This document shows, piece by piece, positions 34,722 to 45,247 of a stretch of DNA of 64,000 nt. The notes under the pieces are model-generated. The model was not told where the DNA came from and searched no databases. It worked only from the letters and a program-made list of their open reading frames with translations. The position numbers and the translations under genes are program-made. Position 1 is the first letter of the stretch; the number at the start of each line of letters is the position of its first letter. This DNA comes from Anaeromyxobacter sp. (GTDB taxonomy: Bacteria; Myxococcota; Myxococcia; Myxococcales; Anaeromyxobacteraceae), in contig JASGJN010000004.1 of the NCBI GenBank assembly GCA_049840735.1, forward strand, positions 32,001 through 96,000, in the 5' to 3' direction.

Positions 34722-34798
34722 GGGGTGTTAGTTAAGTCGGTTATAACGCCGGCCTGTCACGCCGGAGGCCAGGGGTTCGAGTCCCCTACACCCCGCCA
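34722..34798 (+). tRNA. tRNA-Asp(GTC), integration target
   Basis: Anticodon arm CCGGC-CTGTCAC-GCCGG; GGTTCGAGTCC; encoded CCA. Confidence 0.95.
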
Positions 34799-36199
34799 GT
34801 AACGAGGCCGGGACTTCACGGGAAACCGGTGGGGTCCCGGCCTCGGTGTTTCTGGCGTCCGACGCGGATACCACCGGGATACCAAGCGGCTGGTTAGCCG
34901 TGGCGAGCCCGTCCGAACCGGTGCCATCCCCGCCCGCAGCAGCGCCCGCCCCCGCCCGTTCGCCCTGAGCGTAGCCACCGCGAAGCGGTGGCGGAGTCGA
35001 AGGGCGAGCCTGCGGCAGCCTCGGCGCCAGCCGGTCCACCCCGAACCGCAGCCGGTCCACCTCCGACTTCATGAAGTCCGGCAAGAGGTGCCCGTACCGC
35101 CGCTCCGTGATCTTCGGATCCGAGTGCCCGAGCAGCTTCTGCACCGACACGAGCCGCGCCCCGAGCATGAGCAGCACGCTCGCGTAGGTGTGCCGGAGAT
35201 CGTGGAAGCGGATCTCCCGGACCTTCCCCTTCGGCCAGAGCTTGAACCCGCAGCGCGGGCACGGCCGGATCTCCGCGTCCTCCCGCTCCTCGCTGAAGCG
35301 GCACGTCTCCGCCGGCACACGTGCGTGTACCCGGTGACGATCCCCGCCCGCTTGAGCGCGCGCCGCAGCACGTCCTCCGGCTGCCACGTCTTGTTCCGCA
35401 TCGCGCCGGTGTCGTCCGGGAAGAGCCACGGCCCCTTCGTCGCCCGGAGCGCGTACGTGATGAACGGGACGAACTCCTCCGGGATCGCGACCACGCGCTG
35501 CCTCTTGCTCTTCGGGAACGGCCGCTCATACGAGCGCCGCGCCATGACGAGCCGGCGCACCAGGTCGACGTCGTCCTTCCGGAGCCCGCACAGCTCGCCC
35601 TTGCGGAACCCGGTGAAGATGGCGGCCGCGAAGACCGGCCGCTGCTCCGGCGCGAGCGCGGCGAAGAACGGGAACACCTCCTCCGGCGCGAGGATGTTCA
35701 CGATCGGCTCCGGCACACGCCGCGTGTCCACGTCCTCCGCCGGGTTAGCGCCGTGCCACTTGCCCGCCTTGCGCGCCTTGTTGAATGCGCGGACGAAGAA
35801 CTGGCGGATGTGGTTGATGGTGCCCGGCGCGACCTGCCCCTCCTTCGACTGGAGGAGCTGCTCGACGTCGCCCGGCCGGACGTGCTCGAGGAGCTTCGCC
35901 GCGATGGGCGCGCCGAGGATGTGGCACCGGACCGTCCCCTCGTTGCTCCCGTGCGCCGCCTGATGGCGGCTGTACGTGTCGAGCCACCAGCGCATGAGGT
36001 CGGCGACCGTCCACCGCTCCGGGTTGATGGCGCGCGGCGCGAGCCCGAGGTTCTGACGCTCGACCTCGAGCTCCTTCTCGTGCAGCTCCGAGCGTGCCTC
36101 CGCCTTGGTGCGCGCCTTGCTCGTGACCGTGCGCCACTCGCCCGCGGCGTCCTTGAACTTGAAGCGCCAACGCCCCTTGTACAGGAAGACTGTGCCCAT
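34728..36199 (-). CDS. int: Tyrosine integrase, Mx8-like, reading through the att core (frameshift ~35315)
   Basis: TGFRKGEL, FHDLRH, LGHS..ITERRY catalytic motifs; Cys-rich insert (HVC...CPRC). Confidence 0.92.
34803..34852 (+). terminator. GC hairpin after tRNA-Asp (second copy ~45237-45286)
   Basis: CGAGGCCGGGAC...GTCCCGGCCTCG stem followed by GTGTTT. Confidence 0.65.
34956..35004 (-). repeat. REP copy inside the integrase 3' region
   Basis: Reverse complement of the REP consensus with hairpin CCACCG-CGAAG-CGGTGG. Confidence 0.8.
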
Positions 36200-36220
36200 G
36201 CTTCGCCTCCGCCCGGAGTC

Positions 36221-36417
36221 CTAGCGGCCGCGCCGCGCGCCGCCCTCCTGCACCCACGCGCGGATCTCGGCCGGGTGAACCGCACGCCCCAGCCCGCGAG
36301 CCGCTTCACCGGGAGCGTCCCGTCCTCGGCGCGGTGGTAGACCCAGCTCACGCTGCGCTTCAGGAACCGCGCTGCGGCCTGGACGTCCCAGAGCTCGTCG
36401 TCGGGAGGGAGCGCCAT
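36221..36417 (-). CDS. Excisionase-like HTH protein (frameshift ~36275)
   Basis: LWDVQAAARFLKRSVSWVYHRAEDGTLP..R...VRF; directly upstream of int. Confidence 0.8.
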
Positions 36418-36678
36418 TTCCGGGTTCGGCGTGCGCGCGGCCCGTGCTCGCGGCTTCGCATCCGGACGTTGCTCAAGGTCCGCTCGCGGTGAGCTTGTCG
36501 AACCGCGAGCGGTCGAGGCCCCAGTTCCCGCTCGCCCCGAGCGTTGCCGCCGCGGAGCGGCGGCGGAGTCGAGGGGCCGGCCCGCGCCGCTCGCGGGCCG
36601 CACCCCGGTGTCGGCAGTCCCCTCCCCCGCCCACCCGAACGCAACCTGCTCCCCGCGCGTCTCTTCCATCGCCCGCTC

Positions 36679-37077
36679 CTACTTCTTGCGACCAGGCGGC
36701 GCCGTCCCCGCCTTCCAATCGAACCCCGGCCCGCTCTCCAGCACCTCGTGGTAGCGGCGCATGAGGACGTGCATGACGTACTTCCGGCGGTCGAGCCCGA
36801 GCGCATCGCGGTCGCGCTCGAGCTCGTCCGTCACCATGTCCGGCATCGCGTACCAAGCGTAGAGGTCGTGGGTCAGGGTGACGAGGAACTCGTTCATCGA
36901 CCATCCACGCTGCTTCGCCTCGGCGCCGAGCCAGGAGGCGAGGTCGCGCGGGAAGCGGAACGTGACGACGACCTTCTCGGACGAGACGTCCGACGACGCA
37001 GGGCGCGCAGGAAGCTCCGACGGCGCCTTCTCTGGGCTCATGCTCCCGGACGTAGGCACCGCGTCGTCAGCCTGCAA
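36679..37077 (-). CDS. Small DNA-binding protein, ribbon-helix-helix-like
   Basis: VVVTFRFPRDLASWL..EAKQRGWSMNEFL, Arc-like pattern. Confidence 0.6.
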   Translation of the reverse strand: MQADDAVPTSGSMSPEKAPSELPARPASSDVSSEKVVVTFRFPRDLASWLGAEAKQRGWSMNEFLVTLTHDLYAWYAMPDMVTDELERDRDALGLDRRKYVMHVLMRRYHEVLESGPGFDWKAGTAPPGRKK

Positions 37078-44527: not shown

Positions 44528-44687
44528 GCGTGCGCTCGGCGGTGAATTCTACTTTCTGGCGACGGCGACGAACCGTGTATGGTCCTGCGCTCGGGTACTG
44601 CTCCGCTCGCGGCCGTAAGGATGACCTTCGGTGGTTGAGCCTGCCGCCGGATCAGCGGCAGCGATAGATTGCCCACCGAGCGCACGC
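44528..44687 (-). ncRNA. Putative retron msr-msd RNA
   Basis: Perfect 12-bp a1/a2 inverted repeat GCGTGCGCTCGG (44528-44539 / 44676-44687), extendable imperfectly; 7-bp hairpin 44641-44661; abuts the RT start codon. Confidence 0.8.
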
Positions 44688-44734
44688 CTTCTGACGGTAC
44701 ATCGGCGTGCCCGTATGTCAAGGATGCTATTGCT

Positions 44735-45060
44735 TTCTGCCGGGGTTGAGGAGCTGGTAGGCCACGAAGCCCGCCAGCCACGGGAGCATCATCAGGGGGC
44801 GCGGCGGCGCCTGGTCGCCCACGTCCCAGCGGCGGCGACGCAGCAGGAAGTAGTCCACCAGCAGCACCGCGTAGAGCGGCACGAAGACCGAGCCCAGCAG
44901 GAACAGGAACCCCTCGTACTGGACGATTCTCGGTGCCTAGGGCGAGCAGCGTGGCGAGCACGCCCACCGCCACGGCCACCGCCCGGCGGTCCAGCGACGG
45001 TCGGAAGTTCTGGGCCGAGACGGCGGTCGAGTACAGGTTGGCGAAGGCCTCGTCGCCAAG
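44735..45060 (-). pseudogene. Internal fragment of an NCS1/CytX-like permease
   Basis: DEAFANLYSTAVSAQN and YEGFLFLLGSVFVPLYAVLLVDYF in two frames; no gene start or end. Confidence 0.7.
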
Positions 45061-45187
45061 GGGATACCAAGCGGCCGGAGAACGCCGGCGAAACCCGGCG
45101 AGCCGCTGGACTCCTCGCCAGACCCGCTGCCAGGATTTCCGCCGCCTTGCGAATCCCGACCACATCCACCCGACGTGATTTCACTGA

Positions 45188-45247
45188 CTGTCACGCCGGA
45201 GGCCAGGGGTTCGAGTCCCCTACACCCCGCCAGTAACGAGGCCGGGA
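45188..45247 (+). repeat. Second att site (duplicated tRNA-Asp 3' half)
   Basis: Identical to 34754-34813. Confidence 0.95.

Follow-up and report, generated by a model that had tools for sequence, protein, structure and literature searches.

Integrative elements and satellites carry defence cargo in hotspots, among them the P2/P4-type hotspots and tRNA-linked defence islands. Such hotspots share a conserved recombination backbone and a fixed slot with conserved flanks, in which the defence systems vary by genome. Two of the systems discussed below also have described relatives. The short Lamassu of Vibrio cholerae (DdmABC/LmuABC) encodes LmuA with a Cap4 domain, LmuC and LmuB in one operon, and the sections of that study drawn on here report that Lamassu detects both DNA ends and palindromic DNA (PMC12663957). 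Type XI retrons, according to the part of a 2020 survey cited here, have no recognisable ncRNA (PMC7736814), and we found no characterised member of the type in the literature. The retron Eco2/Ec67 (type I-C) is, in the relevant portion of its description, a single polypeptide (RT-Toprim) with a C-terminal Toprim nuclease as effector and an upstream ncRNA (PMC12916289).

Here we describe an island at tRNA-Asp in a 64,000-nucleotide stretch of an Anaeromyxobacter sp. contig, the window, whose features are collected in Table 1. We judge it probable that the island has two parts, a backbone and a defence cargo slot, and that the systems it carries act independently. The backbone would comprise Int, an HTH protein resembling excisionases, a small protein of Arc/RHH type, SoFic and a structured module with two 18-bp palindromes, and would belong to a family of islands that in this genus occupies other tRNA sites besides this one; the slot would hold foreign DNA of about 60% GC, namely a short Lamassu whose effector is a Cap4 nuclease and a type XI retron, both complete, along with a remnant of a host permease gene.

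Table 1. Features of the tRNA-Asp island, in window coordinates.
Feature	Position	Strand	Basis or remark
tRNA-Val, directly upstream of tRNA-Asp	34625-34697		
tRNA-Asp(GTC), integration target	34722..34798	+	ARAGORN; Rfam tRNA 72.8 bits
Tyrosine integrase (Int), two frames	34728..36199	-	Pfam Phage_integrase on both pieces; PHROG
attL, left 107-nt repeat copy	34754..34860	.	Direct-repeat search
15-nt motif GGGATACCAAGCGGC	34876..34890	+	Second exact copy 45061-45075
Putative excisionase (Xis, HTH), two frames	36221..36417	-	Three-frame translation; HTH_17
Small protein, probably ribbon-helix-helix (Arc-like), divergent from Fic	36679..37077	-	
SoFic-type Fic protein, two frames	37214..38454	+	PADLOC, Pfam, alignments to relatives, metagenome contigs
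Conserved non-coding module, left edge of cargo slot	38518..38829	.	
LmuA, effector with Cap4-type nuclease domain	39053..40354	+	Cap4_nuclease 3.2e-19; PADLOC LmuA 3.8e-15
LmuC	40408..40899	+	PADLOC LmuC 9.1e-10
LmuB, SMC/Rad50-like ATPase	40878..42839	+	PADLOC LmuB 9.1e-61, residues 28-622
Retron RT fused to trypsin-like protease	42884..44527	-	PADLOC RT-Protease_XI 4.5e-158; RVT_1, Trypsin_2
Candidate msr/msd ncRNA, 160 nt	44528..44687	-	Inverted repeat; z -3.2
Permease gene fragment, 319 bp, non-functional	44737..45055	-	Identical at 317/319 to a full-length copy elsewhere in this genome (contig C17)
Conserved right att arm, right edge of cargo slot	45056..45187		Carries 15-nt motif
attR, right 107-nt repeat copy	45188..45294	.	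Direct-repeat search

The island and its recombination backbone

The element measures 10,434 bp and is bounded by two 107-nt direct repeats of 94% identity, each made up of the 3' half of tRNA-Asp and a terminator hairpin; direct repeats of the tRNA 3' part thus stand at both ends, as in tRNA-integrating islands of tyrosine recombinases. Direct comparison of the two copies gives an exact core of 60 nt (34754-34813 = 45188-45247), and the bounds that the preliminary description had drawn, 34754..45247, agree with the repeat copies and this core, as does its placing of an integrative island at tRNA-Asp. The motif GGGATACCAAGCGGC occurs in two exact copies in the window, one per att region, and is, we infer, a candidate arm-type site for the integrase. 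Among the element ORFs scanned with Pfam, PHROGs and PADLOC, none matched a family for replication, capsids or conjugation, and the earlier statement that such genes are lacking holds for these scans. Neither an excised circle nor an empty site of this strain was seen. One joint in metagenome contig X7, which goes back from 45086 to 34754, was considered as a circular form and rejected, because the att copies are near-identical and the stretch between them merely falls below the likeness threshold.

All the components named in the preliminary description (Int, Xis, RHH, Fic, Lamassu and a protease retron) were recovered, although for two of them, RHH and Xis, the profile matches are weak. Int matches Pfam Phage_integrase and Int_N as well as the PHROG integrase family (4.9e-38); both of its halves match Phage_integrase yet sit in different frames, and its open frame extends into the tRNA, crossing a REP-like element (34955-35014) on the way. 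Xis, whose stop lies 21 nt ahead of the Int ATG, has an HTH_17 match at E 0.005, under the Pfam cut-off, and the RHH protein has a PHROG Arc-like repressor match at E 0.0019 and none in Pfam. The two Fic pieces match PADLOC SoFic (3.1e-42 and 8.1e-18) and Pfam Fic and Fic_N, and together span positions 5-197 and 226-359 of the 361 in the SoFic profile (PDLC03963), whereas in this assembly the frame is broken inside the catalytic motif. The PADLOC check suggested earlier recognised SoFic, Lamassu (LmuA, LmuC, LmuB) and RT-Protease_XI alike; because SoFic is itself PADLOC-recognised, it is a third defence system, and the earlier count of two becomes three.

Phage Mx8 uses tRNA-Asp, and the site had been described as one used by Mx8-like phages. 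This part of the description found no support: the best phage integrases for the N-terminal 290 aa of Int are those of Mx4 (29%) and Mx9 (33%), with Mx8 absent among the 16 records matched in a collection that may or may not include it, and the best 15 of the 1211 records matched by the C-terminal 102 aa include no Myxococcus phage. As judged from these matches, the integrase appears not to be detectably Mx8-like.

Do the broken frames mean that the backbone is decaying? Int, Xis and Fic each show one 1-nt deletion relative to same-genus genomes, a base being missing after 35307, 36275 and 37890, respectively, where relatives carry an extra base; the extra base is also present at all three breaks in the contigs of 4/4 metagenome runs. 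The Fic break lies within the HPFx[D/E]GNGR motif, which relatives read as HPFADGNGR, and several relatives retain Fic alone beside the tRNA, without Int. Over the roughly 3.06 kb of coding backbone, three frameshifts exceed the 0.57 that the rate across the genome predicts (Poisson P ~0.02), so the backbone may be in decay and the island no longer able to move: Int, Xis and SoFic would then be pseudogenes, excision would no longer occur, and selection would keep the cargo alone, where no frameshift occurs in 5.45 kb. We regard this as a real possibility, but an unlikely one. A cargo free of frameshifts is no surprise (P 0.36), neither the att repeats nor the two 15-nt motifs are damaged, and 14 of 75 conserved genes are likewise frameshifted in this assembly relative to genome G006, with 19 events in 102.6 kb, which points to indel errors in the assembly. 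In an assembly so noisy in indels, backbone decay is not callable, and its frameshifts should not be taken as pseudogenes. If the two-part island is still mobile, its movement would require Int and Xis, and its transfer between cells a helper.

The palindrome module and the cargo slot

The left edge of the slot is formed by a non-coding module. It has two 34-nt direct repeats, each containing a perfect palindrome of 18 bp (TTGAACCACGTGGTTCAA), and a long hairpin (38591-38648) that is conserved and whose pairing is kept through compensatory changes; related islands at different tRNA sites share this module in conserved form. Between it and the right att arm, the slot spans 38830-45055, with GC content stepping from about 0.75 (host) through about 0.70 (backbone) to about 0.60 (cargo). 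Its edges recur in same-slot genomes, at 38829 / 45062 in G002 and 38832 / 45056 in G013, and in the joints of two metagenome contigs (38829 -> 45056 in X7, 38830 -> 45056 in X1). The metagenome contigs come from soil and freshwater; because they cover the cargo thinly (X7 alone) and X7 possibly derives from the source sample, we draw no inference from them on habitat or independent co-occurrence.

The backbone is found in three same-genus genomes, G013 (82% DNA identity), G023 and G009, while 39.0-44.7 kb has no DNA match among the matches listed for 40 relatives. PADLOC-recognised defence genes lie downstream of the module in 5/5 loci that have it, and they differ by locus: Lamassu and the retron in the window; PDC-S09 and an MTase, with a PIN domain by Pfam, in G013; another Lamassu and a PD-Lambda-3_A-like gene in G002, where the module is partial; MTase II and IetAS in G023; and GajA, a methyl-directed REase and PDC-M57 in G006. 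The earlier view of a cargo dominated by defence, with no replication, packaging or transfer machinery of its own in the scanned ORFs, holds for the element. In G009, the island at this tRNA encodes metal efflux and lacks the palindrome module, so the family is not purely a carrier of defence. Cargo is probably exchanged through recombination between the conserved flanks, and since sister genomes have different systems in this slot, the island family is a handy place to search for new defence genes.

What might the module do? One bold proposal is that it is a cis-acting site of cassette capture or exchange, making these tRNA islands a dedicated, integron-like platform for defence swapping in Myxococcota, and that, separately, canonical type XI retrons have an msr/msd that can be modelled; we consider this proposal rather improbable. 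Very doubtful, too, is a satellite-like life, in which the module would be a cis site (a packaging, replication or transfer origin) through which the island hijacks a helper, either a phage or a conjugative element. The lack of transfer genes in the island, the perfect palindromes, the compensatory changes in the hairpin and the conservation of the module at different tRNA sites would all suit such a role; however, Pfam and PHROG scans found no helper, capsid-remodelling, primase or relaxase gene in the element, and the module could equally be an operator/promoter region or an ncRNA.

Lamassu and the type XI retron

The Lamassu genes lie on the plus strand in the order A-C-B, and all three have the matches that define LmuA, LmuC and LmuB. 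The LmuC ORF is open from 40270 and likely starts at the ATG at 40408; the translation of LmuB reads GQMGAGKSS at Walker A, and its AAA_23 match falls under the Pfam cut-off. Although the gene set is that of the V. cholerae system, searches of solved structures with LmuA and LmuB returned no matches, so that here neither protein has a sequence-level counterpart among solved chains. A search of 400 other genomes of the phylum found no relative of LmuB at E <= 1e-20, and the best outside homologue of this protein shares 53% identity. By analogy with the mechanism given in the cited parts of the V. cholerae work, LmuB and LmuC would hold LmuA in check; once DNA ends or replication intermediates of a phage are sensed, LmuA would oligomerise and then cut DNA (PMC12663957).

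The retron protein has a full-length match to RT-Protease_XI, over residues 17-539. It belongs with retron-clade RTs by its RVT_1 match (8.1e-15) and YADD motif, and a fused protease is indicated by Trypsin_2 at residues 378-511 (1.4e-19). Across 45 sequences, D199 and D200 of YADD are invariant and Y197 and A198 nearly so; the triad H393, D423 and S497 is invariant, as are N105, A106 and H109, which we take to be the NAxxH motif, and V255-T256-G257, presumably the VTG motif. The full-length profile match, D199-D200 and the protease triad are what it has in common with type XI, the RTs fused to a trypsin-like protease (Mestre et al. 2020, PMC7736814). Full-length RT-Protease_XI occurs in 2/401 Myxococcota genomes and 0/23 of the genus; a single-protein scan of genome contigs yielded one distant locus (L011). 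The best outside homologue has 66% identity, and the closest solved RT is that of retron Ec67/Eco2 (6.4e-47).

A candidate ncRNA precedes the RT gene. Its 15-nt a1/a2 arms (44673-44687 and 44528-44542) abut the RT ATG, and at 13/25 type XI loci arms of 11-24 nt span 120-173 nt, against a weak mononucleotide-shuffle control that reached 17. A shared hairpin keeps 4/6 pairs through compensatory change, while a second alignment, of the 5' parts of the ncRNA, gave no consensus structure. Whereas no ncRNA was recognised for type XI in the cited part of the 2020 survey (PMC7736814), a candidate region of 120-173 nt bracketed by a1/a2 and containing a shared hairpin precedes the RT here and at 12 other canonical loci. 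No Rfam family matches the candidate ncRNA, a mir-341 match (27.7 bits) having been dismissed as chance, and a promoter scan found nothing, its promoter types not being those of this organism. Like Eco2/Ec67, the retron combines its RT and a C-terminal effector in one polypeptide and has its candidate ncRNA upstream, but the effector is a serine protease here and a Toprim nuclease there. By analogy with what the cited portion of the Eco2 work describes, msDNA made by the RT might cage the fused protease, and its disturbance by a phage might free the protease to cleave cell or phage proteins, aborting infection (PMC12916289).

Are the two systems partners or neighbours? Lamassu (39053-42839) and the retron (42884-44687) occupy 5,591 of the 10,434 bp, about 54%, with all four ORFs unbroken and the two systems convergent across a 44-bp gap, much as the preliminary description had it. 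That description also raised, as a speculation, that they are coupled, retron msDNA being functionally linked to DNA-structure sensing by Lamassu; the pair would then be selected as a unit. The convergent genes, their similar GC, the confinement of both systems to this genome among the phylum genomes searched (one other retron excepted) and the DNA ends and palindromic DNA that Lamassu reportedly senses, in the cited sections (PMC12663957), make cooperation tempting. The co-occurrence check, run from the retron side, speaks against it: LmuA, LmuB and LmuC are absent (0/35) among the scanned neighbours of the other type XI loci (24 metagenome, 1 genome and 10 IMG/VR), whose flanks are often short, at least 3 kb on one side in 11/25 of the metagenome and genome loci. 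The neighbours there are RM, HEC-01, SoFic, ThsB, PD-T7-1 and PDC genes, and in the same slot of G002 Lamassu has the PD-Lambda-3_A-like gene as convergent neighbour instead. Moreover, the best outside homologues of the RT-protease and LmuB diverge unequally, the two lists of best 120 homologues have by eye no contig evidently in common, PADLOC labels its RT-Protease_XI model 'single gene', and LmuABC is described, in the cited sections, as acting without a retron (PMC12663957). Retron and Lamassu look like independent neighbours, not partners; coupling is highly improbable, and we have removed the idea from our account as unsupported.

Comparison with known defence islands

Defence islands in the phylum are little known, and the island described here is a precisely bounded and very small natural carrier of three defence systems. 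For canonical type XI, a type without a described msr/msd or a known protease substrate, it also offers a specific ncRNA candidate. Two traits set it apart from P2/P4-type hotspots and tRNA-linked defence islands: its backbone is compact, comprising Int, Xis, RHH and SoFic in a host of the Myxococcota with 75% GC, and on its left side the slot is flanked by a non-coding module that is structured, bears palindromes and has no match in Rfam. What this locus adds to the known hotspots is a backbone that recurs in the genus, a cargo slot with defined edges and a candidate type XI msr/msd.

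A defence-carrying integrative island

The element beside tRNA-Asp is a defence-carrying integrative island, a kind already known, and two small novelties accompany it: its cargo slot is edged by a structured module, and canonical type XI retrons gain a candidate ncRNA. The preliminary description was sound as a whole and right as to the kind of element, and three points can be added to it: SoFic as a third system, frameshifts, and a family-wide cargo slot. The extent it had proposed is confirmed by the positions of two 107-nt direct repeats with 94% identity (attL and attR), which give an element of 10,434 bp. 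The copies agree throughout their first 60 nt, which cover the 45 nt at the 3' end of tRNA-Asp and run into a terminator hairpin; the mismatches are confined to the hairpin loop. GC content is ~75% in host DNA, ~70% across 34.5-38.5 kb and ~60% across 39.0-44.5 kb. The Lamassu and retron genes, described as unbroken, convergent, 44 bp apart and filling over half of the element, are all of these (54% of its length), and, as also claimed, nothing resembling replication, capsid or conjugation genes appeared among the ORFs scanned in the element.

Features of the island and its borders (window positions)
Feature	Position	Strand	Remarks
tRNA-Val	34625-34697		just left of island
tRNA-Asp(GTC)	34722-34798		just left of island, beside tRNA-Val
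attL	34754-34860
Tyrosine integrase, catalytic C part	in frame of ORF 34728-35429	minus
Tyrosine integrase, N part	ORF 35069-36199	minus
Excisionase-like gene	36417 to 36221		two frames; weak HTH_17 match, E 0.005
Small protein, 132 aa	ORF 36679-37077		weak Arc-like (RHH) match, E 0.0019
Fic protein	37214-37972 and 37969-38454	plus	two frames
Conserved non-coding module	38518-38829		left flank of cargo slot
LmuA (Cap4 nuclease), LmuC, LmuB		plus	in that order after Fic
Retron RT-trypsin-like protease fusion, 547 aa		convergent with LmuB	PADLOC RT-Protease_XI, 4.5e-158
Candidate retron ncRNA	44528-44687		160 nt
Permease fragment, 319 bp	44737-45055		end of cargo
Right flank of cargo slot	45056-45187		starts with exact 15-nt motif GGGATACCAAGCGGC
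attR	45188-45294

Host genes resume to the right of attR with one (45360-46568) for a protein that combines SnoaL-like and PAS domains and has a Cys-rich tail at its end; among the matches listed for relatives only one same-genus genome, G009, has a DNA match to it.

A shared backbone and a variable cargo slot

We compared relatives by DNA search of 40 genomes and by local alignments. Beside the same tRNA pair, G013 has the Int-Xis-RHH-Fic backbone with 82% identity, and G023 and G009 have parts of it; several further genomes retain Fic alone next to the tRNA. No DNA match to 39.0-44.7 kb stood among those listed for the 40 relatives; 190 further matches lay beyond that listing. Similarity to relatives breaks off and restarts at fixed points, the slot edges: 38829 and 45062 against G002, 38832 and 45056 against G013, and 38829 and 45056 (run X7) or 38830 and 45056 (run X1) against metagenome contigs, whose joints bear on the edges only and have short flanking matches of 22-28 nt.

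The module at the left edge contains two 34-nt direct repeats, each with the perfect palindrome TTGAACCACGTGGTTCAA, and a hairpin (38591-38648) with a 25-bp stem, whose pairing is maintained by compensatory changes among the 5 to 6 copies present in four genomes. This hairpin matched no Rfam family and may be either an ncRNA or a structure of the DNA itself. The motif opening the right flank also lies at 34876-34890, just inside attL, making the two copies candidate arm-type integrase sites.

What fills the slot? PADLOC-recognised defence genes lie downstream of the module in all five module-bearing loci (the module of G002 being partial), and the set varies by locus: Lamassu and a type XI retron in the window; a PDC-S09 nucleotidyltransferase and an MTase (PADLOC) with a PIN protein (Pfam) in G013; a different Lamassu and a convergent PD-Lambda-3_A-like gene in G002; MTase II and IetA/IetS in an island at tRNA-Gly in G023; and GajA, a methyl-directed REase and PDC-M57 in G006. 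The G002 Lamassu (L065 = G002:C336, 3101-8679), in the same slot as the window's, comprises LmuA with a CTD7 domain, LmuC and LmuB; it is convergent with the PD-Lambda-3_A-like gene (456 aa), and a gene for an AAA_21/HEC-01A-like ATPase comes next. In G009, the tRNA-Asp island lacks the module and carries metal-efflux genes as cargo.

In the window, the cargo ends in a 319-bp fragment between the candidate retron ncRNA and the att arm, which agrees at 317 of 319 positions with a stretch of an intact, full-length permease gene of the same genome (G000:C17:107921-108238); it may stem from illegitimate recombination or be an assembly artefact.

Backbone genes and their frameshifts

Mx8 integrates at tRNA-Asp, and the site had been described as one used by Mx8-like phages. 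The best matches of the integrase N-terminal 290 aa are Myxococcus phages Mx4 (29%) and Mx9 (33%), for the C-terminal part the matches are generic phage integrases, and no Mx8 record appears among the matches listed for either query, leaving the proposed tie without support; one review (PMC11610982) mentions attB1 and attB2 only. The two Fic pieces combined cover the PADLOC SoFic profile almost wholly, and SoFic is the third defence system of the island.

Int, Xis and Fic are each one base short relative to same-genus genomes, and contigs in all four metagenome runs have the extra base, after 35307, 36275 and 37890, respectively; the Fic break falls within the HPFx[D/E]GNGR motif. We gauged assembly noise against a complete same-genus genome, G006, using 115 of the 161 long ORFs in 400 kb of it and counting as conserved those whose best hit in the window's genome (G000) had at least 60% identity (75 genes, 102.6 kb). 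There were 19 frameshifts in 14 of these 75 genes (~0.19 per kb of conserved coding DNA), with examples on G000 contigs C26, C22, C20, C17, C13, C9 and C2, far too many for real pseudogenes, and the assembly therefore has indel errors. The backbone nonetheless holds three events in ~3.06 kb of coding DNA, ~5x expectation (Poisson P ~0.02), whereas their absence from the 5.45 kb of cargo is unremarkable (P 0.36). With a noisy assembly and a backbone above expectation, we regard real decay of the backbone as possible but less likely than not. Broken ORFs anywhere in the window should not be taken as pseudogenes without reads.

The positions 34955-35014 and 36527-36586 hold copies of a REP-like element, 50-60 nt long and containing a hairpin; one of them sits within the integrase frame, in its open 3' tail. 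Copies with 89-96% identity are dispersed in the same genome (contigs C19, C21 and C22, plus a 79% copy on C25) and in many genomes of the genus.

The type XI retron and its neighbours

Functional coupling of retron and Lamassu had been suggested, with co-occurrence as a check. We assembled 35 type XI loci: 24 from metagenomes (23 by tblastn of both domains, plus L144), one from another Myxococcota genome (G338) and 10 from IMG/VR. A PADLOC scan of neighbouring ORFs (82 of at least 180 aa and a further 50 of at least 300 aa; only 11 of the 25 metagenome and genome loci have at least 3 kb on one side, and 5 of the 35 loci are without a neighbour ORF to scan) found LmuA, LmuB or LmuC near none of the 35; one neighbour, PDC-M68B at L138, has a marginal LmuB match (9e-9). 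The genes nearby are those usual in defence islands: RM systems, HEC-01, SoFic, ThsB, PD-T7-1 and PDC candidates. In the opposite direction, starting from Lamassu, an LmuB query found nothing in 400 other genomes of the phylum, its best outside homologue having 53% identity, and neither full-text literature searches nor one defence-synergy paper reports a Lamassu-retron interaction. We conclude that Lamassu and the retron are neighbours in the slot, and that the suggested coupling is wrong or unsupported. On an unrelated metagenome contig (L101, 2079-3281), a type XI retron has SoFic immediately downstream, the sole recurrence of any pairing from the island.

A full-length RT-Protease_XI match was found in two of the 401 Myxococcota genomes searched (the window's own and G338) and in none of 23 of the genus; the nearest relatives of the fusion are a metagenome protein with 66% identity and then proteins with at most 48%. 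The residues D199-D200 (of YADD), H393, D423 and S497 never vary among 45 aligned sequences, and Y197 and A198 are almost invariant.

Immediately upstream of the RT ATG we predict a type XI ncRNA, bracketed by 15-nt inverted repeats and with a fold more stable than shuffles (z -3.2). Similar arms (11-24 nt, span 120-173 nt, ending at most 22 nt from the RT start) occur at 13 of 25 type XI loci, a count for which the shuffle control is weak. These 13 have in common a short hairpin, 4 of whose 6 pairs show compensatory changes; a second alignment of the candidates gave no consensus. The candidate is of some interest because passages of Mestre et al. 2020 (PMC7736814) report type XI as without a recognisable ncRNA.

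The closest solved RT is that of retron Ec67/Eco2 (6.4e-47). In Eco2, as passages of its description (PMC12916289) have it, the fused nuclease is caged by msDNA until a phage nuclease degrades the msDNA. The effector fused to the RT is a nuclease in Eco2 and a protease in the window's retron; by analogy, this protease might likewise be caged by msDNA until a phage disrupts it.
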